Shown here: positions 3,330 to 55,691 of the stretch, in pieces | Layout: each line of letters starts with the position of its first letter | Numbering within the stretch: position 1 is the stretch's first letter | DNA from: Candidatus Micrarchaeaceae archaeon | GTDB lineage: Bacteria > Chloroflexota > Dormibacteria > Aeolococcales > Bog-877 | DNA: 64,000 nucleotides | Reading direction: 5' to 3' | Assembly (NCBI GenBank): GCA_035531715.1 | Contig: DATKSI010000031.1 | Span: 9,673-73,672, forward strand | The notes under the pieces: generated by a model | Told to the model about the DNA's origin: nothing | Databases searched by the model: none | The model's input: the letters and a program-made list of their open reading frames with translations, nothing else | Position numbers and translations under genes: made by a program

Positions 3330-3776
3330 TCACCTCTCGTACACCACGTAGGAGGTGCGGTGAGCGACCCGGTCGTAGAGCGAGCGGGCGGGGGCGTTGA
3401 ACTCCTGGGTCTCCCAGTAGGTGCTCGCGGCGCCGCGGCGGTCGGCCTCCTCGAAGGCAGACTCGAGCAGCTCCCGGGCAACCCCTTTCCCACGGGCCTG
3501 GGTGGCGACGAACAGGTCCTCCACGTAGCAGCGGTCGGAGCTGGACCAGGTTGTGGGGTGGAACACCAGATGGACGAACCCCAGCAAGCGATGGCTTTCG
3601 TCCTCAGCCACCAGTCCCACCACCGGACCGGTGCCGGCGGCGAGCCGGGAGAAGGTATCCCAGGTCACCCGGTCATCGATCTCCGCCCGATAGAAGTGCA
3701 GGTAGGCCTCCCAGAGCTGGGTCCAGGACCTTCGGTCGCTCTCGGAAAGTGGTCTCACCATGTCGGGAACCTCCAT
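3330..3776 (-). CDS. GNAT family N-acetyltransferase
   Basis: 148 aa with an acetyl-CoA binding motif …VATQARGKGVARELLE… An alternative start is at MVRPLSE (3761). Confidence 0.8.
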   Translation of the reverse strand: MEVPDMVRPLSESDRRSWTQLWEAYLHFYRAEIDDRVTWDTFSRLAAGTGPVVGLVAEDESHRLLGFVHLVFHPTTWSSSDRCYVEDLFVATQARGKGVARELLESAFEEADRRGAASTYWETQEFNAPARSLYDRVAHRTSYVVYER

Positions 3777-4209
3777 TGGCTCAGAAGTGCAGCAGTCGCC
3801 ACTTGTGGATCAGGGGCGCCTGGTCCGCCGGGAGAGTCGGCCCGCCGGAGTTGGGAAGGTAATGCCGCTCGGCTGGGGGAAGACGGGATGAAGGCCACCA
3901 TCAGTGTCGGGCGGGGACCATGCTGGGCCGCCCACCTTGCCACGGCTGGCGGGGTACCCGGATCTCGGTGAGTTCGAAGCTCCAAGGTTCAACGCCGGCC
4001 CGGTAACCGTCGACCCAACCATCGACGCCATGCGAGAAAGCTTTGGCGAAGAGGGAACATTTCGACCCGCCCAGCCGCTTGCCCCTGACCTCCCGTGAGG
4101 ATCGGAGCGGGATGAAGCGACCGCCTCGGTCGCCCCGCTCCACAAGCGTGGGCATTCCTCGCCAGAGGAGCGATCTCGCGGCTGGCCACTATTCATCACA
4201 ATTGGCTAC

Positions 4210-4431
4210 GTGGTATTGACCGGATTTGGGGCCGCCGCGGTGACCTTCATGGTGGTGATGTACGCCCTGGAGCGGCGCCACCCCGGATTCGTCCTGGCCT
4301 TCGCCGGCGGCTGCCTGCTGTCGAGCACTTACGGCTTCCTGGCTGGCGCCTGGCCGTTCGGCGTGGTCGAGATCGTCTGGGCCGGGATCGCGCTCCGGCG
4401 GTACTTCGGGGCGAGGGCGAGCGCTCGCTAG
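4210..4431 (+). CDS. small hypothetical membrane protein (two predicted TM helices)
   Basis: 73-aa hydrophobic ORF (AAAVTFMVVMYAL…FVLAFAGGCLLSSTYGFLAGAW) with codon usage like the neighbouring genes. No recognisable family. Confidence 0.4.
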   Translation: MVLTGFGAAAVTFMVVMYALERRHPGFVLAFAGGCLLSSTYGFLAGAWPFGVVEIVWAGIALRRYFGARASAR

Positions 4432-43912: not shown

Positions 43913-44947
43913 ATGAAGTTGGGAATCCTGACCGGCGGCGGCGATGCGCCGGGACTGAACGCGGCTATTCGGGCCGTGGCGCTCTGCGCTTTCGCCGACC
44001 GATCCCAGGTGGTCGGGATCCGCAACGGCTGGGCGGGTTTGACTGGGGACACCGATGTGTGGGCGCTCCGCCCGGAGGACGTGACCGGAATTCTGAGTCG
44101 AGGCGGCACCATCCTTGGCACATCCCGGATCAACCCCCTAGCAGACACGGGAGTGATGGAGGCGGTCGCCGCCAACATCTCTCGACTGGGGATCGACGCG
44201 TTGGCGGTGATGGGAGGGGACGATACGCTCTCCGTGGCTGCCGCTCTAGCGGAGCGCGGTGGACCCGTGGTGGGTGTTCCCAAGACCGTGGATAACGATC
44301 TCCAGCAGACTGAGTACTGCATCGGTTTCGACAGCGCGGTCGCGATCGTCACCGAGGCCGTGGATCGCCTGCACATAACCGCCGCATCGCATCACCGGGT
44401 CATGGTGGTGGAAGCCATGGGCCGCGAGGCCGGTTGGGTGACGCTCATGGGCGGTCTAGCCGGCGGAGCCGACCTGATCATCATCCCCGAATTCGCGGCT
44501 GACCTCGGGGGCGTAGTCGAGCATCTCCACTCGCGACGCGGCCGGGGGAAGTCCTACAGCATCATCGCGATCTCCGAAGGCGCGAGGGTCGCCGGCTTGC
44601 CCGAGCCGTCCATCGAAAACGAGTCTCTGGATGCCTTCGGCCATCTCCGGCTCAGCCGCCGGGGGATCGGCGAGCGTCTCGGCGGTCAGTTGGAAGCCCA
44701 CACGGGATTTGAGACCAGGGTCACCGTCTTGGGTCATACCCAGCGCGGTGGTACTCCTACGGCCTACGACCGGATCTGGGCGACTCGCGTGGGCGCGGCC
44801 GCGTATGAATTAGCCAAGGCAGGCGAATTCGGGAAAATTCCGGTCAAGCACGGTGACACCACCGCGGTGAGTCGGATAGCGGAAGTGGTCGCTGGGCCCC
44901 GACTCGTGCCCGAGCATCTCTATCGCTTAGCGCAAATCCTTTACTGA
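43913..44947 (+). CDS. pfk: 6-phosphofructokinase (ATP- or PPi-dependent)
   Basis: MKLGILTGGGDAPGLNAAIRAV…, GGDDTL, PKTVDNDL, MGREAGW motifs. Confidence 0.9.
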   Translation: MKLGILTGGGDAPGLNAAIRAVALCAFADRSQVVGIRNGWAGLTGDTDVWALRPEDVTGILSRGGTILGTSRINPLADTGVMEAVAANISRLGIDALAVMGGDDTLSVAAALAERGGPVVGVPKTVDNDLQQTEYCIGFDSAVAIVTEAVDRLHITAASHHRVMVVEAMGREAGWVTLMGGLAGGADLIIIPEFAADLGGVVEHLHSRRGRGKSYSIIAISEGARVAGLPEPSIENESLDAFGHLRLSRRGIGERLGGQLEAHTGFETRVTVLGHTQRGGTPTAYDRIWATRVGAAAYELAKAGEFGKIPVKHGDTTAVSRIAEVVAGPRLVPEHLYRLAQILY

Positions 44948-45341
44948 GCACCCGGCGCGGATGGGCAGTTGGACTGCGCCGACCGCGGACGACTCAGTTG
45001 ATAGCATTTTGGCTCAACCGCTCCTTCCTCGGAATTGGGCGCGGTCCACTGGCTGAGGAGAGGCTCCAGGGCTGCTCCGCCATCATCCGGCCGACCGTCC
45101 CACTCCGTGAGACCGGCCGGCCTCCGGTGATAAGACACGCCTGGACAAGGAAGACGCCGGCGCGGGACACTCCCCGACCGGCGCCTCCCACCGCCGCCAT
45201 CCTATCCAGGCGGAATGGAGCTCCCTCGCTCTTGCGGAACCCGCCCGAGAGGTCAGCTTCCGGTGCCCTCTCCAGCCTGAGGCGGCGGACCTTTACCACC
45301 CTCCGGCCACCTCGGAGTCCTCTATCGGAAACTAAACGAGG

Positions 45342-45364
45342 GTGAGGCCGGCGCGGCCTCACCT
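45342..45364 (-). terminator. terminator-like hairpin downstream of the membrane protein gene
   Basis: GGTGAGGCCG-GCG-CGGCCTCACC 10-bp GC stem, followed on the minus strand by UCGUUUAGUUUCC. Confidence 0.45.
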
Positions 45365-45379
45365 TCGTATCCGCTGAGT

Positions 45380-45982
45380 TCAGCGAGCTGGCTGTACCCC
45401 ACCGACCCGTGCTGCGAACACTTCTTCGGTCGGAGCTACCCGGCGCATGTGCCAGAAGCCGACGAAGGAGAGAAGAATCAGCAGTCCAGCGAGTACAAAC
45501 GACACGATCGAAGCGACCAAGGCGATCGTCCCAAACACTGAGAATCCATAGGCCTCGAGAAGCATGCTTCGGAGCGTCGTACCTTGGAACGAGGTCTGGA
45601 CCTCCGCTGCCAAGGCGGCGTTGGTGGGGTTCGCCCTGGATGCGGCACTGACCTTGGAGTACACGCCGCTATAGGGCATCTCTGAGAGGTGGACCGCGAT
45701 GAAGTGGTCCGCATAAGCCTGAGCTTGGGCACCGGTAACCAAGTTTTGGCCGGCATACTGGAGGAGGTAGGGCTTCATTCCCGGGGTGATCTCAGTCCCG
45801 GCTTTCGCGTGCGCGAAGGCAGCCGCTGCCGGGAAAACGATGTCTTGCTTGGCCAACTGGCTGTGCACCTCGTTGGTGGTGAACACGGCCGCCCACATCA
45901 GCAGCGCTCCGGCCAAGATCAAAGTTAACGTCAGCCCTAGGCCAATGCCCGAAGAGATCAAATCGAATGTCTTGCGTCGCAT
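45380..45982 (-). CDS. hypothetical membrane protein (N- and C-terminal TM helices)
   Basis: 200 aa. Local GC is lower than the surroundings. A terminator-like hairpin lies 17 nt downstream. Confidence 0.6.
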   Translation of the reverse strand: MRRKTFDLISSGIGLGLTLTLILAGALLMWAAVFTTNEVHSQLAKQDIVFPAAAAFAHAKAGTEITPGMKPYLLQYAGQNLVTGAQAQAYADHFIAVHLSEMPYSGVYSKVSAASRANPTNAALAAEVQTSFQGTTLRSMLLEAYGFSVFGTIALVASIVSFVLAGLLILLSFVGFWHMRRVAPTEEVFAARVGGVQPAR

Positions 45983-46085
45983 TTCTCAACTCCTTGATTC
46001 GTAACTGCTGATCGACTTCCCTTACTTACTCTTCAGTTTTTCAATAAAGGCGACGGGTCGAAAGCGGGCTTTCATCGCTCGGCGC

Positions 46086-46202
46086 TTAGGGGTTTTCACC
46101 CGAGGCTCGTCGGCATTGCCGGTCGGCTACGGCGAAGTGGGCCATTTCACCGTCGTGGGGCGAGCCATTCAGGCGGACACGGACCGAGGTGAACGTCACA
46201 TC
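46086..46202 (-). pseudogene. truncated paralog-like copy (38 codons) of the small protein encoded at 13633-13887
   Basis: Reading from a GTG gives MTFTSVRVRLNGSPHDGEMAHFAVADRQ… This aligns to MCTYQTETVSLRGSGKGTQGWFSVTDAS… (T-[FY]-x-[TS]-x-x-V-x-L-x-G-S … [WH]-F-x-V-x-D). It sits in an ORF-poor stretch. Confidence 0.25.
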
Positions 46203-47047
46203 CCCAGCTCGGGGGCGAGCTCCCGCACTCGAGCAGGACCTCCGGGGGTTCTGCCCTTGCGCACCAGATGCGACCATGGTCAAGCGGCAGATCTTTCCAA
46301 CTGGCCACGACCACCAAGGCCGCCGCGGCTTGGCTTGAACCAAACGCTGACCACTTCCGCTCTCTATTCGGAATCGACACCGATACCGCTGACTCCGTGT
46401 CGGCTGCGGGCCCAAATCGCAGGGAAGCCATGGAACCGTCTCCGCCTTCTGCTTGAAAACCCAAGTGTCCGATTGGTGCTTCGCCTGAGCCCCCGTCGCA
46501 TCGACCGCGCGCCGTTAGCCGCCTTCGTGGATCGAGCCCCCTCAATCAGGCGCCGGGGGATCGGGACGCCAGCGGGCAAGCGGCAGCGGCAAATCCGGTC
46601 GCATCTACTCGGGGCCCATCCTCGGTCGCTTCCATGTCCACCTCGGAGGAGCAGCTGCGAATTGGGGTTGACGATGACTTCTCGGTCCATGTGGTCACGA
46701 CTCATGGCGGACGGCCGGCGGAGGCCGTGGGCGCTCGTGCATCCACCGAGTTGGGCATGGTCAACCCTCGCCCGGTCGCGGAGCCGCAATTCCCGAGCCG
46801 GCGAACTTGATGGGCTCGGCCGACAGCGGATCCCCAGTACCGGGAGTGCCTGAGCTAATGCCGACCTACCGACCGGCGTCTGGCTTTGACTCAAGGGGTC
46901 GACTACAGAGTGCCCATCGGTGGCGATGGGGCCGACCAGCACGGTCTGCGGCGCCGGACCGGCAGGCCCGATGACTTAAGATTGAGGGCTGCGGGAAATG
47001 CGGAATTGCGGCAGGCGAACCTGGTCAGTTGGCTTCCGAGCGGGCGC

Positions 47048-47593
47048 TCACGCGGGAGTCCAATCTACCCGACTGTTGAAGCGGAACCCCAAGGGACGGT
47101 GCTGCTCGACGCGAGCCCGCGGCCCGACTACCACGACCGGGCAGTGCGCTTCGCTGACGCAGCGTTGGGAAACGGAACCCAGCAGTAGGCCAATCAGTGC
47201 GGATCGACCCCGAGAGCCGACTACGAGTTCGGCGGCGTGCTTGCTCACCTCGATGAGGACTTCGGCCGCCGTCCCTTCCACCGCCTTGGCCTCAATCCGA
47301 ACCTGGGGATACTGTCGGGAGACCGCTCCGACAGCCTCAAGCAGGCTGGCTCGGTAGTCATCGTCGACCTCGGCGGGGGTCGGGAGCAGCGCTTCGGGAT
47401 AGGGACCGGCCACCAGGGTCGAACGGCTCAGGAATGTGGTGATCGCGAGGATTTTCATGCCCCGGCTCTCCGCCTCGGCGGCTGCCCATTCCAGGGCGTG
47501 TCGGCTAGCGACTGTTTGGTCCACACCGACCACAATCGGGTCAGCCGGAGCCGGAGGTTGGTAATTGGTAACGGGGACACCGACTGCACTCAT
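47048..47593 (-). CDS. universal stress protein (UspA family)
   Basis: USP fold with an ATP-binding type C-terminus (…LVVGSRGRSALIGLLLGSVSQRCVSEAHCPVVVV…). Confidence 0.8.
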   Translation of the reverse strand: MSAVGVPVTNYQPPAPADPIVVGVDQTVASRHALEWAAAEAESRGMKILAITTFLSRSTLVAGPYPEALLPTPAEVDDDYRASLLEAVGAVSRQYPQVRIEAKAVEGTAAEVLIEVSKHAAELVVGSRGRSALIGLLLGSVSQRCVSEAHCPVVVVGPRARVEQHRPLGFRFNSRVDWTPA

Positions 47594-48011
47594 TTTGGTC
47601 TCCCGCAGAGCTTCAGATTAATGGTTCATGGGAGCTAGTTCGACTACTCCATGGTCTGCTACCCACCGGCTTCAGTCTCGGAGAGGAACCTTCGAAATCG
47701 AGCGGGTGTATTCCCTCGCCAGCTGGCCGCCGGAAGTGCCTGAGCCTTCCGCCGTCGCCGTGAGCAGTGTGAAGGGCGAGGACAGCCATGGGTGGGTTCT
47801 GCGCGGCGGTCAGCTGCTCCGGTCCGACTGGTCTCACCCCGCCATCTGCCGGGACGGTGGTCAGCCGTTCACTCAGACTCCCGAGCCGGGCTGGCGCCCC
47901 GCGGCCCGGGAAGTAGCTATTCATTTGGGCTAGGTACCCCCGGGTCGGCCCCCCGGCACAACCTGGGTTCCTAGGCCCGGAGCAGCGCCGGGTAATATCC
48001 CGAGCCAGGAG

Positions 48012-49724
48012 ATGACCGTGAGGGACGAACGATCGGACCACGGCCAGGAGATCCCGCGGGGGGACCCCCGGGTTGCTCTGATCGAAGCCGGAGTCCTGCT
48101 GGCATCAGAGCTCTCACTGCCGGTGATCCTGCGGCGGCTGGTGGAAATCGCAGTTAGCATCACCGGCGCCCGCTATGGAGCGCTCGGAGTCACCGGCCCC
48201 AACGGCGGAGTCGCCCAGTTCATCACGGTCGGACTGGGCAGCGAGGAGCGCGCCGCGATCGGAGCCCTTCCGCAGGGCCGCGGAATCCTGGGCGCCCTGA
48301 TCCGTGACCCTCGCCCACTGCGCTTGGCCCGACTGCAGGATGACCCGCGTTCCGTGGGCTTCCCAGCGCACCATCCCAAGATGACCTCCTTCCTGGGCGC
48401 CCCGGTCAGGGCGAGGGGCAAAGTGTTCGGCAATCTCTACCTGACGAACAAGGTGGGCGGAGAGCCGTTCGATGCCGACGACGAGGGGGCGGCGGTGACG
48501 CTGGCGACCCAGGCTGGGGTGGCCATCGCCAACGCCCAGACGTTTGGGGAGTTGATCCAACGTGAACGCTGGCTGGGGGCCTTGCACGCAGTTACGGCTG
48601 CTCTGGTGGCTGGCCAGCCCCAGCACGGCTTGCTGACCACGATTGTCCGCAGTGCCAAAGAACTGGCCGGGGCAGACCTGGCCGCGATCGCCCTCCCGGT
48701 CGATGAAGGCTCGCCCGCGCTCAAGGTCTTTGCGGCCGAGGGCGTCGGTTCAGAGCAGCTGCTGCGCGCCCCTCCCAAATCGGCGGGCACCGCCTCACAC
48801 CTGGTGCTGCGCACCGGCCGATCCCAGACCCTGCGCTCAAGATCTGGCGAACTGGGCGGCACTCTGTTGGCCGGTGCTGGGGTTCCGCTCGGGGTTCTGA
48901 TGGTCGTGCCGCTGGGAATTGGGGGACGGGTCGACGGGACGATCAGCCTGGCGCTGTTGGAGCCGGAGGCGGAGTTCCGCCCAGACGCGGAGGCTCAGCT
49001 GGAGAGCTTTGCCGCCCAGGCCTCAATCGCTTTGGACTACGCGAGAGTCCAGGCCCAGTTACTCCACCTGGCGGTTGTCGATGAGCGCCACCGAATCGCG
49101 CGCGACCTGCACGATGAGCCGGTCCAGGCGCTGATCTATCTGGCTCGGCGACTCGAGTTCATGGCGAGCGAGTCTAGTGCGGAAGGAACCTCTTCGACCA
49201 AACTGGAGGAAACCAGAGAGGTGGCGGTGGCGGTGGCAGACGGTCTGCGGCAGCTAACCGAAGGTCTGCGATCCGACATCCTCGACCACGCAGGTCTGCC
49301 CGCCGCCCTGCTGGACCTGGTCCAGCGGTTCAGCTCGAGAGCCGAAGTGGCGGCGGACTTCTCGACTCGGGGAGCCCTGGGGCGATGGAACCAGGAGCTG
49401 GAGCGCGACCTCTTCCGCGTCGCCCAGGAGGCGCTGAGTAACGTCGAGCGTCACGCCCAGGCGAGCGAGGTCAGGGTTGACCTGATCGCCCGACCAGGCA
49501 GCCTCACGCTGCGGGTGGGGGACAACGGGATCGGATTCATCAGCGCCGGGAACGAAGCCGTTTCCCGTGGCTTGGGGACTCTCGGGATGCGAGAGCGAGT
49601 GGCGGGGCACGGAGGCCGGCTGATGATCAGATCCCGCTCCGGTCGGGGAACGATAGTGGCGGCGGTGGTGCCGAGCAGTCCAATTCCGGGCAACGGTGGC
49701 GACCCGCGAGCCCAGCACCCGTGA
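48012..49724 (+). CDS. sensor histidine kinase with tandem GAF domains (DevS/DosS/DosT-like; HisKA_3 plus HATPase_c)
   Basis: Two GAF-like regions. H-box ERHRIARDLHDEPVQAL, N-box QEALSNVERHA, G-box DNGIGF. Confidence 0.85.
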   Translation: MTVRDERSDHGQEIPRGDPRVALIEAGVLLASELSLPVILRRLVEIAVSITGARYGALGVTGPNGGVAQFITVGLGSEERAAIGALPQGRGILGALIRDPRPLRLARLQDDPRSVGFPAHHPKMTSFLGAPVRARGKVFGNLYLTNKVGGEPFDADDEGAAVTLATQAGVAIANAQTFGELIQRERWLGALHAVTAALVAGQPQHGLLTTIVRSAKELAGADLAAIALPVDEGSPALKVFAAEGVGSEQLLRAPPKSAGTASHLVLRTGRSQTLRSRSGELGGTLLAGAGVPLGVLMVVPLGIGGRVDGTISLALLEPEAEFRPDAEAQLESFAAQASIALDYARVQAQLLHLAVVDERHRIARDLHDEPVQALIYLARRLEFMASESSAEGTSSTKLEETREVAVAVADGLRQLTEGLRSDILDHAGLPAALLDLVQRFSSRAEVAADFSTRGALGRWNQELERDLFRVAQEALSNVERHAQASEVRVDLIARPGSLTLRVGDNGIGFISAGNEAVSRGLGTLGMRERVAGHGGRLMIRSRSGRGTIVAAVVPSSPIPGNGGDPRAQHP

Positions 49725-49770
49725 AATCACCTGGCCGCGGGCCGCACCGCGGCGCTACGCTCAGTCCGAA

Positions 49771-50430
49771 ATGAGTCTCTCGAAGATCTCTATCGTGGTG
49801 GTCGAGGATCACGCGTTGGTGCGTGAGGGGACCCGCCAAATCCTCGCGGGCGAAAGCGACTTCGATGTGATCGGAGAAGCCTCCAGGGGCGATGAGGCAG
49901 TTCAGGTTGTCCTCGCGACGCGCCCGGATGTGGTCCTGATGGATATGCGCATGCCGGGGATCAATGGGATCGAGGCCATCCGACAGATTCTGGTCGAAGC
50001 GCCGGAGACCAAGGTTGTCATCGTCAGCGCCCATGAGGACGAGGATTACGTCCGCGAGGCGCTGGCCGCGGGAGCGGTGGGGTACATCCTCAAGACCGCG
50101 CCGGCCCGGGAGTTGGTCGAGGGAGTCCGGGCGGTGGCCCATGGGTCACTGGTGCTCAGCCCCAGCCTGTCGCGACGGCTCACGCAGGCGAGATCGGACC
50201 CGACCCGGGCAACTGATCGCCTGAGCGCCCGGGAGCTGGCCGTGTTGCGCCAAATTGCCCAGGGTCGAGCCAATAAGGAGATCGCCCAAGAGCTGGGCAT
50301 CAGTCAGCGCACGGTCGAGGGACACCTGCACAACATTTTCGAGAAATTGCGCGTCAGCTCTCGGACCGAGGCGGTCATCTACGCCGCTAATCACGGGATC
50401 GTCTCGATCGAGCCCACCGAAGACCGGTGA
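49771..50430 (+). CDS. NarL/LuxR family response regulator (DevR/DosR-like)
   Basis: ATG at 49771 (MSLSKISIVVVEDH…). Receiver Asp context VLMDMRMPGINGIEA. C-terminal LuxR HTH (…LSARELAVLRQIAQGRANKEIAQELGISQRTVEGHL…). Confidence 0.9.
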   Translation: MSLSKISIVVVEDHALVREGTRQILAGESDFDVIGEASRGDEAVQVVLATRPDVVLMDMRMPGINGIEAIRQILVEAPETKVVIVSAHEDEDYVREALAAGAVGYILKTAPARELVEGVRAVAHGSLVLSPSLSRRLTQARSDPTRATDRLSARELAVLRQIAQGRANKEIAQELGISQRTVEGHLHNIFEKLRVSSRTEAVIYAANHGIVSIEPTEDR

Positions 50431-51191
50431 GCCGAGCCAGCCAGCGCACCCGGCTTGCGACCGATCGGGCGGGAGTCTCCCGGGCCGAGGACGTTCGGCG
50501 AGCGGATCTGATAATCGGCGAGATCGAAGCCGAGCGCCGGGAGCTGGCCGACCGAATCAACGACGATCCGGTGCAGACTCTGGCCCATGTCTCGCGGATG
50601 CTTCAGAACCTGGCGGAACTTCCGGAAACCCCAGCCCAGGCGGTCCGGGCGGCGCGCGAGTCAGGGGTCCTGACCGCCAAGGTCTGCGAGCAACTCCGGG
50701 GCATGGCCCGCGAGCTCCGGCCGCCGCTGCTCGACGACGTCGGACTTGGGGCCGCACTCAATCAACTCGCGGACGACTTCCGGGCGGCAACCGGCATTTC
50801 CGCCTTCACCGAGTTGGGGGGGGCTGGCAAAGTCCAGGTGCCCGGCACCGACCTGGTGCTTTTCCGGGTGGCCCAGGCGGCTCTCCACCGGGCTGAGGAG
50901 CGCTCGGGGCCGACGCGAGTGGAGATCAGCCTGCGTCAGGATGATGCCCAAGTCACCTTGGCCGTGCGCGACGACGGCAGCGGACTTCCAGATGGTCCAC
51001 CCGCCGAGGCTGGGTCCACTGGATTCGAGGAAATGGCCTACCGGGTGCAAGCGGTCGGCGGCCGGTTGGTGGTGCAATCCCGTCCAGGAGAGGGGACGGT
51101 GGTGACCGCCTCGGTGCCACATCGCTCGGCCCCCCCTCCATCAGGCAGCGCACCTCACGAGCACCTGCCGGGGCTGCGGGAGTGCTCTTGA
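50427..51191 (+). CDS. degenerate histidine-kinase-like protein: HisKA_3/HATPase_c core only, no sensor domain; phospho-acceptor His and N-box Asn both substituted
   Basis: Its GTG start overlaps the devR-like stop (GTGA). The H-box aligns as ERRELADRINDDPVQTL against ERHRIARDLHDEPVQAL in the upstream kinase (His to Asn). The N-box reads QAALHRAEE, with the Asn lost. The G1-like DDGSGL is retained. Confidence 0.75.
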   Translation: MSRASQRTRLATDRAGVSRAEDVRRADLIIGEIEAERRELADRINDDPVQTLAHVSRMLQNLAELPETPAQAVRAARESGVLTAKVCEQLRGMARELRPPLLDDVGLGAALNQLADDFRAATGISAFTELGGAGKVQVPGTDLVLFRVAQAALHRAEERSGPTRVEISLRQDDAQVTLAVRDDGSGLPDGPPAEAGSTGFEEMAYRVQAVGGRLVVQSRPGEGTVVTASVPHRSAPPPSGSAPHEHLPGLRECS

Positions 51192-51638
51192 GCCGGTCCG
51201 ACCCAGGCACCGGAGGGGACGGCGGGTAGCTCGACTCGCCACTCGCTCGCAAGCGGACCATCAGGCCCGCGGCCGCGCTTCAATCTCAGTTGGATCTCGA
51301 CGACTCGGAGCGGGTCGACAGCTCCCGGCCCTGCTCCGGAGTGCCGTTCGGCGCACCTCGGGCCGGCACGACCATCGGCGCCTGCAACTAGGGGTGCGCC
51401 ATGCCAGCCTGGCCCCTCGAATTCCGAGCCACCACTCGAAGCGCAGAGCCGGCGCGCATCGGCGTTGCGCGTGCCGAGATCGAGCAGTAGGGGAATCCAC
51501 CCGCTCCCGATCCCGGGATACCCCGCTTACGGTTTTTGGCGGCGCCCAGCAAGCTGAGCTCAGAAGTTGTCGAGGCCGCACAGAGGCAGGTCGGGGTAAC
51601 TATCACTCCCCACGCGCAGCACCGCCCGGAGGGCACCG

Positions 51639-52301
51639 TTGATGAACGAAGACCACACCGTCCCCAGCCACCGAGAAAGTAGTGTCGGTGCGGTAATTTG
51701 GGCAGCCTGCGGCACCCTGGTTATTGCCGCCTTGGTGATGGCCGGACTCTTCCTGGGTCGGGCTCCCGGGTTTTCCGATCTCCAGGTGGCGAGCCCGGTC
51801 TCCGCGAGCTCCCTCGCCACGGAGCAGCTCCATTTGACCATCGTCACCAACGCTGGGCCCCAGCACGACTGGCCGGCCTACGAACCGGCGAGCTTCTCCC
51901 TTCCCGCGAATCAGGACGTGACCATCACGGTGACGAATCTCGACGGAGCCACGCCACTACCCTCTTCGCTTCGCTCATTCACGAAAGTGAAAGGGGTGGC
52001 CAGCGCCGGCATGACGGTGGTGCCCATCAACGTCAGTCACCCCACGATCGCCAAGGGCGCTGCCCGGGTACTCCACGCCTTGAATGCCAGCGTCGTCTCG
52101 CACACCTTCAGCCTGCCTGAGCTCGGGATCAACGTGCCGATTGCGGCGGGCTCCCGAACCAGCTTCACCGTACGGTTCACCCGCCCAGGCACGTACCAGT
52201 GGGAGTGCTTCGATCCCTGTGGAGGAGGTGACAGTGGCACTCTGGCGCCGATGGGGCGCATCGGATACATGGCGGGCACGGTCACGGTGACCGCCTCCTG
52301 A
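51639..52301 (+). CDS. membrane-anchored cupredoxin-like (CoxII/blue-copper fold) protein
   Basis: N-terminal TM helix AVIWAACGTLVIAALVMAGLFLG. C-terminal …TYQWECFDPCGGG…MGRIGYM… resembles a Cu-binding Cys/Met cluster. Confidence 0.6.
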   Translation: MMNEDHTVPSHRESSVGAVIWAACGTLVIAALVMAGLFLGRAPGFSDLQVASPVSASSLATEQLHLTIVTNAGPQHDWPAYEPASFSLPANQDVTITVTNLDGATPLPSSLRSFTKVKGVASAGMTVVPINVSHPTIAKGAARVLHALNASVVSHTFSLPELGINVPIAAGSRTSFTVRFTRPGTYQWECFDPCGGGDSGTLAPMGRIGYMAGTVTVTAS

Positions 52302-52486
52302 TCGGCATCCCCTACCGCCAGCCGATCGGGGGTGACCGGGTTTCGGTCGCGGGTCCTCCCCAACGCAGCCGATCGTCGGAGTGACCTCGGTCAGGAGGCC
52401 GACCGGCGTCTCCTGACTCCGTTAGGGGCCAACTTGACCCGCCGCTGGCCGCGCGGCCGTCCGGGGACAGACTCGAGGCGAACCGG

Positions 52487-52957
52487 TCAGGGCACCTGGC
52501 AGCTGGAGCAAAGGCCGAGTTGATCGAAACGATGTTCGGTGACTTGGTATCCCTGCCGGTCGATCACCGCGCGGGCGGCCGCCTCCAACGCTCGCTCCAG
52601 CTGAGCCGAGGCGGGCAAATCGTCAACCCGTCCACAGCGGGTGCAGACCAGATGGTGATGGTGACCGCACAGCTCCTCGGCCAGCTCGTAGCGGCCGTGG
52701 TCCTCGGTCCCCGGCAGGCGATAGGCCACCCCGACCTCGGCCAGGATCGTCAGGTTGCGGTAGATCGTGCTCTGCGGCAGGCGCGGAGTCGCGGTGACGA
52801 TCTCGGGAATGGTCAAGGGGCGAGCGGCCGCCGCGAGGGTCTCCACCAGAAGCCGGCGGCGCGCCGTGTAGTGCTGATCCACCTGGGCCAGTCGCGCCCG
52901 AACCGCCTCGTGGATCGAAGTCGAAAGTGCGGCCCGCGCCTCGCCAACATTGCTCAT
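52487..52957 (-). CDS. Fur family transcriptional regulator (Zur/Fur-like), last gene of the metal-uptake operon
   Basis: ATG at 52957 (MSNVGEARAA…). Winged helix, HHHxxC…CxxC metal sites (CGHHHHLVCTRCGRV…CSSCQ). Confidence 0.85.
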   Translation of the reverse strand: MSNVGEARAALSTSIHEAVRARLAQVDQHYTARRRLLVETLAAAARPLTIPEIVTATPRLPQSTIYRNLTILAEVGVAYRLPGTEDHGRYELAEELCGHHHHLVCTRCGRVDDLPASAQLERALEAAARAVIDRQGYQVTEHRFDQLGLCSSCQVP

Positions 52958-53093
52958 TTGATCCGGCACCGTAGCGCCGACCCATGGACCTGCCCGCTTC
53001 CTGACTGTCGGAATCGTGGGGACCACGGGGCCAACCTAGCAGTTGCCACCGGAGCGGGGTCCGGGACAAGTCGGCCAACCGGCCGGGCCAACT

Positions 53094-53921
53094 TCATCCG
53101 ACCGGACCTTCCGCCAGCTGGCGGCGGTTGGGCCCCCGTAGGTGGTAGTAGTCCCAGCCCCGAGCCAGCCCGTAGGAACCGGCGCCGAGGGCCCCGACAA
53201 AAAATCCGATCGGCCAAGCGCAGACATAGGCGAGTGCGATGGCCAGCCAGATGATGATGAGCGCGATACCGACGGCGAGCCCCATGGCGATCCCGGGGCG
53301 GGCGGTGAGTGAGCGGGCGGCCGCGGCCGGCGCGACCATCAGGCTGAACATCAGGAACGCCCCCACGATGGGGACGGTCATGGTGGTAGCCAGCGCCACC
53401 AGGAGAACGAAGCTGAGCTCCATGCGGCTGGCGCGAACCCCCCGGGCCTCACCCGCCTCGGGCATCACTGCGCTCAGGGTGAGGGGCCGGAAGAGCAGGA
53501 GGGTGGCGATCACACAGACCAATCCCAAGCCCAAAATGGGCGGAAGCTCGGCGCGGTTCACCCCCACCACATCGCCGAAGAGAAGAGAGAAAATCTCGGC
53601 GGCGTATTCCCGGCTCAGGCTGAGAAAGAGGGAGCCCAGGCCGAGCATCACCACCAGCGCCAAGGCGGTGACCACGTCTTGCCGTCCGCGCCGGCTGAGC
53701 CAGCTGATCCCGAGTGCGCCCCCGACCGCGAAGGTCCCCAGGCCGAGCAGGGTGCTCAGGCCGAGCAGACTGGCGGCGGCGGCGCCCGCGAAGGCGCCGT
53801 TCGGAACCGCATGAGCGATGAAGGCTGCGCCCCGCAGCACGATGAAAAAACCCAGTACGCCGGCGACCACCGCTACCACGGTGGCGGCCAGCCAGGTGTT
53901 GAGCATGAACCCGGTGAACAC
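53094..53921 (-). CDS. metal ABC transporter permease (ZnuB/MntB family), second permease
   Basis: Multi-TM. A GTG at 53921 lies 6 nt after the upstream permease stop. The track ORF extends to 53987. Confidence 0.8.
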   Translation of the reverse strand: MFTGFMLNTWLAATVVAVVAGVLGFFIVLRGAAFIAHAVPNGAFAGAAAASLLGLSTLLGLGTFAVGGALGISWLSRRGRQDVVTALALVVMLGLGSLFLSLSREYAAEIFSLLFGDVVGVNRAELPPILGLGLVCVIATLLLFRPLTLSAVMPEAGEARGVRASRMELSFVLLVALATTMTVPIVGAFLMFSLMVAPAAAARSLTARPGIAMGLAVGIALIIIWLAIALAYVCAWPIGFFVGALGAGSYGLARGWDYYHLRGPNRRQLAEGPVG

Positions 53922-53926
53922 TTCGG

Positions 53927-54829
53927 CTAGGGTCCCGCGGGCCGCGCGTCGATGATCGCGCTCCGGGACGCCCACTTCGATGCCCACCTGCGCGCGGGAA
54001 GCTGAAGCAGGAGGTACAGGGTGAAGATCAGGGCCACTACAAAAAAGCTCACCGGCCAGCCACGGCCGCCCGGCGGCCAGTAGAAGCTGTCGTAGGCGAG
54101 CACGATGCTCACCCAGGTCACGGCCACGCCGATCAGGGCCGCCAGCAGGAGCGCCAGCCCGGGGTGCTTGGTCAGCCGCAGCGCACAGGCCGCCGGACCG
54201 ATCAACAAGGCGGTGCTGAGCACCGCCCCAATGGTCATCGCCGAGAGGGACACCGCGAGCGCCAACGAGACCAGATAGCCGATTCCCACCAAACGCACCG
54301 GAACGGCTCGCGCCACGGCCATATCCGAGCTCAACGAGCTGAAGAGGAGCATCCGGTACAAGATCAACACGGTGCCCAGAGAGACGACGCCGAGGCCCAA
54401 AATGATCGGCACCAGCCCCCCGTCGATGGTGAAGATCGAGCCGAAGAGGATGGTCATGGACGCCCCGGAGGTGTTGCTCGAGGTGGTGTCCAGATAGAGA
54501 AAGAGCGCCGCCAGTCCAAGCCCCGCCCCGAGCACTATGCCGGTCGCCAAATCTCGGCTCCGCGCCCGCCCGGGTCCGATCAGGTCGATCGTGCCGGCGG
54601 CCACCGCTGCGATCACCACGAATCCCCAGAGCTGGCTCACCCCGAGTAGAAATGCGCCCGACCCGCCGGCAGTGCCCAGGTCGGCCAGCGCGTGGCCGGA
54701 AAACGACTGACCCCGAACCACGGTGAACACCCCGACCACACCGGACACCACCGCCACGACCGTCCCCACGATCAGCGCCACCTGGACCGGGGAGCTCTGA
54801 AAAAGGCCGGGGCCGAAGATCGAACCCAT
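53927..54829 (-). CDS. metal ABC transporter permease (ZnuB/MntB family)
   Basis: Multi-TM. The start at MGSIFGPG (54829) is preferred over the track start at 54877. Confidence 0.8.
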   Translation of the reverse strand: MGSIFGPGLFQSSPVQVALIVGTVVAVVSGVVGVFTVVRGQSFSGHALADLGTAGGSGAFLLGVSQLWGFVVIAAVAAGTIDLIGPGRARSRDLATGIVLGAGLGLAALFLYLDTTSSNTSGASMTILFGSIFTIDGGLVPIILGLGVVSLGTVLILYRMLLFSSLSSDMAVARAVPVRLVGIGYLVSLALAVSLSAMTIGAVLSTALLIGPAACALRLTKHPGLALLLAALIGVAVTWVSIVLAYDSFYWPPGGRGWPVSFFVVALIFTLYLLLQLPARRWASKWASRSAIIDARPAGP

Positions 54830-54842
54830 CAGGTCTCCGACC

Positions 54843-55691
54843 TCAGACCAGGCCTGGATCGGCGGTCGCATGAGCATGCTCGTGATCCGCGGCAGAGGTG
54901 TCGTCGGAACCGGAGATCACCAGTACCCGGTCGCGCAATCGGATCACGTCGACCTGGCGGCCGTAGAGCCGACTCAATACCTCTGGCTGGACCACCTCTT
55001 CCGTGGTCCCACTGGCCGCCCGGCCCGCCGCCACGTAGACGATTCGGTCCATGACCGGGAGTAAAGGGTTCATGTCATGGGCCGAGATCAACACTGCGAT
55101 GCGCTGCTCCCGGGCGATCCGGGAGAGCAGCTCCACGACTTCGTGCTCGCTGCGAATGTCCAGGTTGATCAGGGGCTCGTCGAGGAGCAACAGCTGGGGT
55201 CGGCTGATCAAGGCGTGGGCGATGAGAATCCGCCGCTGCTCGCCACCGGACAGCCGACCGACCCGCTTGTCGGCGAAGCTGGAGGCATCGACCGCCTCGA
55301 TCATCTCGTCAATCAGGCGGCGCCGCTGGCGCGAGGGGAAGGGGATCCCGATGCGGTGTCCGTCCAGCCCCAGGCCAACGACGTCTCGCGCTCGCAGCGG
55401 CATGTCCGGATCCAGCACCACGGTCTGCGGGACATATCCGATCGCCGGATCCGGCCCCGACCGGGCGCCGGGCCGGATCCAGATGCGGCCGGCGCTCGCT
55501 CGCTGGAGACCCAGGATCACCCGGAAGATGGTGGTTTTGCCGGCTCCATTGGACCCGATCAGCCCCGTCATCTCGCCCTCCCGGATGGCGAAGCTCACAT
55601 CACGCAGCACCTGGCGACCGCCTAGCCAGACGGAGACCCCCTCCAGCTTGAGGACCTGGTCAGCGTCGACTCGAGCGAGCTCCTCTTCCAC
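54843..55691 (-). CDS. metal ABC transporter ATP-binding protein (ZnuC type)
   Basis: Walker A GSNGAGKTT, signature LSGGEQRRILIA, Walker B LLLDEP. Confidence 0.85.
   Translation of the reverse strand: MEEELARVDADQVLKLEGVSVWLGGRQVLRDVSFAIREGEMTGLIGSNGAGKTTIFRVILGLQRASAGRIWIRPGARSGPDPAIGYVPQTVVLDPDMPLRARDVVGLGLDGHRIGIPFPSRQRRRLIDEMIEAVDASSFADKRVGRLSGGEQRRILIAHALISRPQLLLLDEPLINLDIRSEHEVVELLSRIAREQRIAVLISAHDMNPLLPVMDRIVYVAAGRAASGTTEEVVQPEVLSRLYGRQVDVIRLRDRVLVISGSDDTSAADHEHAHATADPGLV

Follow-up and report, generated by a model that had tools for sequence, protein, structure and literature searches.

A gene at positions 50427 to 51191 (plus strand) of the DNA analysed here, a 64,000-nucleotide stretch of GenBank contig DATKSI010000031.1 that we call the window, encodes a 254-amino-acid pseudo-histidine kinase. 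It is the third gene of a two-component module, lying after a DevS/DosT-type sensor kinase and a NarL/VraR-type response regulator. Its product, which we call the third protein, consists of a DHp (dimerization and histidine phosphotransfer) domain and a CA (catalytic and ATP-binding) domain, and has neither a sensor domain nor the phospho-acceptor His, as is evident from the open reading frame (ORF), from Pfam matches and from alignment. The gene is under purifying selection, and the DHp domain is its most constrained part. The acceptor His being absent, the third protein as predicted is incapable of the His-dependent kinase and phosphotransfer reactions. Most likely it acts through its DHp face on the phosphorylated regulator, as a phosphatase or at least as a binder.

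The third protein and its family

An earlier note on this DNA described the gene as encoding only DHp-like and CA domains, with an Asn in place of the acceptor His, a substituted N-box Asn and a preserved G1 box, and each of these points agrees with our analysis. The protein matches Pfam HATPase_c with 32.5 bits (cut-off 26.4). Its match to HisKA_3 (PF07730) is below threshold, at 17.0 bits against a cut-off of 24, but residues 36 to 101 cover positions 1 to 67 of the 68 in the profile, so the domain is present though divergent. When the protein is aligned with the upstream kinase by BLASTP (32% identity, E = 1e-22), the DHp domains pair without gaps, and Asn45 (AAC, 50559-50561), not a His, lies opposite the acceptor His367 of the kinase (DRINDDPVQ against RDLHDEPVQ). 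The acidic residue at +1 from this position, Asp46, and the Gln at +5, Gln50 (CAG, 50574-50576), together form the DxxxQ motif of phosphatases.

The ATP site is degenerate. Where the kinase has QEALSNVERH in its N box, the third protein has QAALHRAEER, with Glu replaced by Ala151, Asn by Arg155 (50889-50891) and His by Arg159; the window's copy is therefore also without the Asn that binds Mg-ATP. The G1 box is intact (DDGSG, Asp182 to Gly186, 50970-50984, against DNGIG in the kinase), whereas G2 is degraded (STGFEEM against GLGTLGM). A separate alignment to the CA domain structure of VraS (4gt8) yields identical substitutions. The third protein is thus set apart from functional HisKA_3 kinases by the acceptor His, the HisKA_3 score, and the N and G2 boxes.

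An N-terminal tail of 31 residues (50427-50519), poorly conserved and predicted to be disordered, precedes the DHp domain (residues 32-118, 50520-50780) and the CA domain (residues 119-232, 50781-51122). The GTG at 50427 is the sole start ahead of the conserved DHp sequence, as no other in-frame ATG, GTG or TTG occurs. An AlphaFold2 model built from an alignment of 23 family sequences (pLDDT 79, pTM 0.66) has a helical hairpin formed by residues 19 to 64 and 70 to 97, followed by an alpha/beta CA domain. In the tail, pLDDT is 46 to 48 over residues 1 to 20, with values below 50 at 1 to 7 and 10 to 17, and 71 over residues 21 to 30. The lid, residues 191 to 196, is also disordered in the model (pLDDT below 50). 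A Foldseek search of the PDB with this model retrieved histidine-kinase cores only, including HK853, DesK and DivL (4q20) with E values of about 1e-9, and the CA domain of VraS was matched with a TM score of 0.88 and a root-mean-square deviation of 1.9 Å.

Relatives were sought with a protein search over 5.8 billion proteins and a profile search over 1.84 billion cluster representatives. An identical protein is present on three independent contigs. A close group of relatives (P0002 to P0023) comprises proteins of 224 to 284 amino acids that are 36 to 63% identical to the third protein, many of them labelled Candidatus Dormibacteria or Dormibacterota, and a drop in score from 126 to 92 bits divides this group from ordinary full-length HisKA_3 kinases. 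In all, the family contains roughly 30 sequence clusters of 221 to 293 amino acids, almost all from Candidatus Dormibacterota. Given the identical copies and these homologous clusters in public data, the third gene is no chance ORF.

In the 23-sequence alignment the acceptor position is Asn in 22 sequences and Asp in one, and there is no variation at Val49, Gln50, His54 or Arg57 or in the motif LRPPLLDD. The N-box Asn is retained in 16 of the 23 (ALRNAEEHS), so its loss is lineage-specific, confined to the window's copy and a few relatives. About 17 of the 23 preserve G1, nearly all have Ala for the Glu of QEAL, and G2 reads TGxxEM throughout. The profile search added further Asn-type representatives (P0121 to P0124) and a protein with Asp at the acceptor position (P0127), whose gene overlaps one for a receiver-GerE (REC-GerE) protein at locus L040. 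Among His-less members with a complete H-box, Gln occupies +5 in 32 of 32 and an acidic residue occupies +1 in 28 of 32.

Ratios of nonsynonymous to synonymous substitution (omega) were estimated by the Nei-Gojobori method from codon alignments of ten loci. For pairs that are not saturated, the whole third protein has an omega of 0.19 to 0.24 (L009/L001, 0.19; L008/L001, 0.22; L008/L009, 0.24; L002/L016, 0.24), with 0.11 to 0.20 for the DHp domain, 0.11 to 0.18 for the CA domain and a nearly neutral 0.47 to 1.0 for the first 31 residues. In the same genomes the catalytic core of the real kinase has values of 0.16 to 0.17 and the regulator 0.06 to 0.09. In L004 and L005, which represent the deepest lineages, the CA domain has values of 0.5 to 1.1, with synonymous sites saturated, and seems to be under relaxed constraint. 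The third protein accordingly has the attributes by which bacterial pseudo-histidine kinases are recognized: the fold of a histidine-kinase core, loss of catalytic function under selection and, by genomic evidence, integration in a two-component system.

The surrounding module and the loss of the His

The earlier note proposed that the gene is translationally coupled to the regulator through a GTG start that overlaps the regulator's stop codon, and the DNA bears this out: positions 50424 to 50433 read ccgGTGAgcc, with the shared GTGA at 50427 to 50430 (plus strand). We collected individual loci and scanned GTDB species genomes, which together gave 14 intact loci of the core family, that is, the Asn/Asp-type proteins, the window included. 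In all 14 the regulator stop and the start of the short gene overlap (ATGA or GTGA, or TGATG), and the same overlap is found in L040, L041 and L042. A tandem-GAF HisKA_3 kinase usually lies directly upstream of the regulator. However, kinase and regulator are separated by a DUF308 gene on the opposite strand in L001 and L009, and in L008 the kinase is inverted and about 3 kb away. As regulator and short protein stay joined in all three of these loci, they are the invariant unit of the module. Frameshifted copies of the short gene occur in L017 (4779-5684), L021 (4956-5641) and L022 (4979-5631); these may be true pseudogenes or may stem from errors in long reads or in the assembly of metagenome-assembled genomes (MAGs). 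One MAG, MFD03399.bin.2.21, carries the module twice, as L015 and L017.

All loci of the family come from Dormibacterota MAGs, except for one in a bin labelled Candidatus Acidiferrales (Acidobacteriota). This locus, L016 (DATLTJ010000082.1, 4258-5666), has the whole module, and its short protein shares 60% identity with that of the window. Its presence there suggests mis-binning or horizontal transfer.

The upstream kinase (48012-49724, plus strand) is 570 amino acids long, and Pfam identifies GAF-A (residues 34-173), GAF-B (207-342), HisKA_3 (358-422, 34 bits) and HATPase_c (464-555) domains; its acceptor His367 is encoded at 49110 to 49112. GAF-A matches the heme domains of Mycobacterium tuberculosis DosT (2vzw, E = 3.5e-43) and DevS (2w3d, E = 1.2e-36). 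The proximal-His motif is preserved as GFPAHHPKM against GFPLHHPPM (HHPxM), and the distal-Tyr motif, GNLYLT, is identical. All catalytic boxes are intact: HDEPVQ, QEALSNVERHA in N, DNGIG in G1 and GLGTLGMRER in G2. It is therefore well founded, from these predicted domains and motifs, to call the kinase a DevS-like heme-type GAF sensor; the earlier note had already described a DevS/DevR-like system with a tandem-GAF HisKA_3 kinase.

The regulator gene (49771-50430, plus strand) encodes 219 amino acids with a receiver domain (Response_reg, E = 9.6e-31) and a GerE helix-turn-helix (E = 7.1e-22). The earliest start in its ORF is a GTG at 49696, inside the 3' end of the kinase gene, and the true start is likely the ATG at 49771. 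Homologues of 218 to 220 amino acids, 73 to 87% identical, align from that ATG (MSLSKISIVVVEDH), so kinase and regulator genes are probably separated by 46 bp and do not overlap. The receiver has the canonical acidic, Asp, Ser/Thr and Lys positions. Its best structural match is VraR (E = 1.5e-46, 162 bits), and NarL, DesR and ChrA also score above DevR (3c3w, 109 bits); the regulator is not specifically DevR-like.

The history of the third gene can be approached through a sister group of short proteins with the signature EWERKWLAEQ, in which the acceptor is Thr in P0165, Ser in P0180 and Gln in P0192. The nearest His-bearing relative of the window's third protein is P0143 (L042, 2751-3470), which is likewise a sensor-less third gene, but has the His and intact N (QEALRNVEEHA), G1 (DDGSG) and G2 (GFGLATMRQR) boxes. 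It may be a mini-kinase, constitutively active or bifunctional, in which the ancestral state is preserved. Loci L041, with P0192, and L042, with P0143, have an identical layout of tandem-GAF kinase, regulator, short gene (4-bp overlap) and Usp (universal stress protein) gene.

In a neighbor-joining tree (100 bootstraps), the neighbouring kinases form one clade (100%), and a joint clade of these with the short proteins receives 3%. The Asn/Asp family is a clade at 75% and the sister group at 91%, with P0143 outside the Thr/Gln pair (92%); support for uniting the two clades of short proteins is weak (37%). The kinase tree likewise splits deeply, with L041 and L042 on one side and all other loci on the other, so the three-gene module is probably ancestral. 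The His was then probably lost at least twice within one orthologous module, to judge from this pattern of acceptor residues, and the selected function would therefore never have needed it.

We considered whether the third gene is a recent duplicate of the neighbouring kinase or, as the earlier note suggested might emerge from a comparison of orthologous loci, a decayed DosT-like paralog. Neither account holds. The short proteins do not group with the kinases (3%, as against 100% for the kinases by themselves), their alpha-2 helix differs, and their 32 to 38% identity to the neighbouring kinase does not exceed what they share with HisKA_3 kinases that are unrelated. The closest relative with a His, P0143, is itself short and sensor-less.

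A Usp gene (47048-47593, minus strand; Pfam Usp, E = 3.9e-23) is divergent from the kinase gene, and the 418 bp between them (47594-48011) correspond to the long leader that the earlier note placed beside a UspA gene. Usp genes also lie beside the module in six loci (L001, L005, L008, L009, L041 and L042). On the other side of the module, a cupredoxin-like gene (51639-52301, plus strand; Cupredoxin_1, E = 4.7e-9) is a possible regulon member, by association only. A cupredoxin-like gene follows the module in the window, in L002/L003 (7184-8829) and in L004 (5618-7201), with a DoxX/DoxD-like gene next, and DoxX alone follows it in L006 (2701-3252) and L007 (6939-7553). Both kinds of neighbour may belong to the same regulon and have redox-related roles.

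Farther downstream, at 52487 to 54877 on the minus strand, a gene for a FUR-family regulator (52487-53026) sits beside overlapping ABC-3 permease genes (53094-53987 and 53927-54877), in what looks like a cluster for metal uptake of Zn/Mn type. Upstream of the Usp gene, about 1 kb (46000-47047) contains low-complexity ORFs only and has no Pfam or Rfam match. Beyond it is a membrane ORF of 200 amino acids (45380-45982, minus strand) that has no Pfam match; L008 also has a Pfam-less 200-amino-acid gene (3619-4221) near Usp.

The Usp neighbours make a DosR-type regulon, which the earlier note expected to respond to hypoxia or NO, plausible by analogy. Support for that proposal is weak, given the regulator's closer resemblance to VraR and NarL and the lack of enrichment of DosR-box palindromes (GGGACnnnnGTCCC), of which 61 matches with up to two mismatches were found against 94.6 expected. 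The operon intergenic region has a single DosR-box-like match, with two mismatches, at 47851 to 47864. An Rfam scan of 44000 to 53000 gave no match, a scan of the operon and leader region for promoters (sigma-70-like) and terminator-like sites found nothing, and short inverted repeats in the leader amount to two weak 9-nucleotide pairs.

K-mer footprinting of ten kinase upstream regions drew out a near-palindrome, CCAGCCNGGCTGG, which with up to two mismatches occurs 31 times in the window against 12.9 expected, a number reached in none of 100 shuffles. A copy of it, CGAGCCGGGCTGG, is at 47882 to 47894, 130 nucleotides upstream of the kinase start. We dropped this sequence as a candidate conserved operator since its position upstream of kinases is inconsistent across loci, and its excess could be a codon or GC effect. 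By footprinting, inverted-repeat search and positional comparison, no conserved operator could be defined upstream of the kinase.

Proposed function and alternatives

Phosphatases with a DxxxQ motif provide a mechanism by which a His-less protein could act on a response regulator (PMC5231405, PMC3510030, PMC7005713, PMC12632262). In the phosphatase state of DesK-DesR, the buried His188 lies more than 18 Å away from the reactive site, Gln193 holds the water in position, Asp189 touches the regulator and the CA domain adds to the interface (PMC5231405). The phosphatase activity of NarX requires DxxxQ (PMC3510030), and the His has been called "not essential" for activity of this kind (PMC12632262). 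In the mycobacterial system, DevS phosphatase keeps DevR off under aerobic conditions, including against activation driven by acetyl phosphate (PMC12757749).

We therefore propose, tentatively, that the third protein, which has no sensor, acts constitutively as a phosphatase on the phosphorylated regulator, is made in step with it and sets the off-rate and threshold of the DevS-like switch; we judge this to have slightly less than an even chance of being right. The third protein appears to keep the alpha-1 face through which a HisKA_3 DHp domain docks with its regulator, with Gln50 one turn past the acceptor position, and because this face and the water-positioning Gln are kept, the protein would bind the phosphorylated regulator and speed its dephosphorylation whatever the signal. 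The result would be a constant "off" rate that opposes the heme-GAF, DevS-like kinase, suppresses activation by cross-talk or acetyl phosphate and quickens the reset of the switch. The CA domain may persist for its structural part or for contacts with the regulator, and in most relatives it perhaps still binds nucleotide. As regulator and third protein would be translated together, the dose of the third protein would track that of the regulator.

Extended to the whole family, the proposal is of a natural kinase-turned-phosphatase in an obligate three-component module. Its starting point would be a kinase without a sensor, from which the His disappeared independently on at least two occasions, its selected job throughout having been the CheZ-like one of dephosphorylating the regulator. 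This wider claim is possible, and we hold it with rather more reserve.

In favour of the phosphatase proposal, the docking positions of alpha-1 mirror the cognate kinase while the ATP boxes decay. The helix is identical to that of the kinase at +1, +3 to +5, +7, +11, +12 and +14. However, inspection of aligned H-box and alpha-1 strings reveals that unrelated HisKA_3 kinases share as many positions, so this likeness does not discriminate partner specificity. The suggestion in the earlier note that the protein could not autophosphorylate and yet could dock with the regulator as a phosphatase, scaffold or decoy is consistent with all of these findings, and the invariant Gln at +5 strengthens it.

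Several points count against a phosphatase. The assignment would follow from one invariant residue and its context, and the residue at +1 is not acidic (Gln, Asn, Thr or Ala) in four of the 32 proteins, whereas NarX required both residues. The cognate kinase keeps HDEPVQ and is presumably bifunctional, so that it is not clear why a second phosphatase should be needed. Strong conservation of the DHp domain would fit binding of the regulator without catalysis, or heterodimerization with the kinase, equally well. The idea that pseudo-kinases are phosphatases has also been weighed and doubted, with frequency as the argument against a general role of this kind: 56 of 16,025 HisKA_3 domains in a survey (0.3%) are His-less, against 0.9% of HisKA domains (PMC12632262). 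Finally, autoregulation of the operon by its regulator lacks operator support in the searches described above.

If the third protein bound the regulator through its DHp domain without catalysis, it could be a decoy or anti-activator, a protector of the phosphoryl group or a reporter of regulator state in the manner of DivL. We think this unlikely, though it deserves serious attention: the coupled genes suggest matched production, the docking face is conserved even as the acidic residue at +1 varies, and there is precedent in DivL, a high-ranking structural match and a pseudo-kinase known to bind a phosphorylated regulator (PMC4211667). Yet such binding leaves the invariance of Gln50 unexplained, and there is no output or sensor domain through which reverse signalling like that of DivL could pass. 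A target in the kinase is a still more doubtful proposition. Here the third protein would heterodimerize with the DevS-like kinase, or bind its DHp domain, and so poison or tune autophosphorylation, as the equal length of the two ungapped DHp domains and their conserved core hydrophobic positions would allow and as documented heterodimers of ChrS with HrrS (PMC9491836) and the RetS/GacS case (PMC12757749) illustrate. However, in the rearranged loci L001, L008 and L009 it is the regulator gene that the third gene accompanies and not the kinase gene, and the alpha-2 helix and base of the DHp domain differ systematically between the two proteins (LRPPLLDDVGLG against LRSEILEQEGL in the kinase), which also fall in separate clades.

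The remaining explanations are very improbable. One is that the gene is a decaying relic of a duplicated kinase, the term used in the earlier note, or else a product of frameshift or misassembly. Loss of the catalytic residues, the frameshifted copies in L017, L021 and L022 and the seemingly relaxed CA domain of the deepest lineages would accord with decay. An omega near 0.2, Asn at the acceptor in 22 of 23 sequences, an architecture kept at all 14 intact core-family loci, some 30 intact clusters of constant length and the identical protein on three contigs contradict it. Nor is the gene a frameshifted fragment of a longer kinase gene, which the earlier note had named as a possibility to check, since the regulator gene abuts it in another frame at 14 of 14 of those loci, leaving no room for an upstream sensor domain, and an alternative start is absent. 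Hardly more credible is a phospho-relay component with some other acceptor, for example His54 at +9, charged in trans by the CA domain of the neighbouring kinase. His54 is invariant in the core family, but +9 lies on the helical face opposite the acceptor site and the window's copy has no Asn for Mg-ATP. Since genuine kinases have Tyr or His at +9 and the Thr/Ser/Gln variants of the sister group have Gln there, we regard His54 as an ordinary residue of the family and rejected it as a substitute acceptor.

Comparison with known systems

Pseudo-histidine kinases are a recognized class that includes DivL, RocA, PsmA and the laboratory-evolved ChrS_CA-fs. In the literature searched, we found no description of a minimal, His-less DHp-CA protein encoded by a regulator-coupled third gene in a DevS-type module, and public records name members of the family "sensor histidine kinase" or "ATP-binding protein", annotations that can now be corrected. 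The family is clean material for the question of whether pseudo-kinases serve as phosphatases. Its members are tiny and soluble, the partner regulator and kinase are encoded next to them and the Gln is invariant, and they form natural series in which the His is first present and then gone and the ATP boxes first intact and then lost. If the kinase-turned-phosphatase reading is true, the family is a natural test of pseudo-histidine kinases as dedicated phosphatases. It would also be a case in which a two-component system delegates its "off" reaction to a separate gene dosed with the regulator, a part that might be of use in synthetic circuits. The locus further points to a heme-GAF DevS sensor of mycobacterial type in Dormibacterota, an uncultured soil phylum.

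The DosT/DevS-DevR system of M. tuberculosis resembles the module in its heme-type GAF-A domain, its tandem-GAF HisKA_3 kinase, the presence of a second kinase-like protein and its Usp neighbours. DosT, however, is a full-length kinase with a sensing GAF domain and the His, and the third gene has neither; in addition, the regulator here is not specifically DevR-like and enrichment of DosR boxes is absent.

DivL of Caulobacter is likewise a histidine-kinase core that lacks the acceptor His and is conserved, functional and active through contact with a regulator (PMC4211667). It is, however, of HisKA type, with Tyr at the acceptor position, anchored in the membrane, equipped with multiple PAS domains and signals "backwards" to CckA. 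In contrast, the third protein is of HisKA_3 type, has about 250 amino acids, carries Asn, contains no domain other than DHp and CA and is coupled to a regulator in an operon. RetS of Pseudomonas and PsmA of Streptomyces also function independently of their own autophosphorylation, but they are large multi-domain hybrids whose targets are a kinase (RetS) and the polarisome (PsmA). PsmA is without the phosphatase motif, which the third-gene family has.

ChrS_CA-fs of Corynebacterium glutamicum (PMC9491836) is a NarL-family kinase of ChrS/ChrA type turned into a catalytically inactive pseudokinase, which continues to influence signalling in a setting where two kinase-like proteins share one regulator. 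Laboratory evolution produced it from a full-length membrane kinase by a frameshift within the CA domain; its His is still in place, and it raises output via a paralogous kinase. The state of the third protein is, by comparison, ancient, conserved, His-less and sensor-less.

In their role, CheZ, CheX and CheC are close to what we propose, being separate proteins in which an amide (Gln or Asn) and an acidic residue position the water (PMC3510030). Their folds are unrelated and their target is CheY, whereas the third protein descends from a histidine kinase and its target would be a DNA-binding regulator of NarL type. DesK, including the variant DesKC-H188V, and NarX share with the third protein the DHp signatures ERxxLAxxL-x-D-x-P-V-Q and LRPxxLDDxGL, the DHp-CA fold, the Gln at +5 and the acidic residue at +1. 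Unlike them, the third protein is natural and stands alone, with no sensor, transmembrane part or His. Being encoded as a separate, His-less third gene, it would be fixed in the kinase-off condition, with no switching between states.

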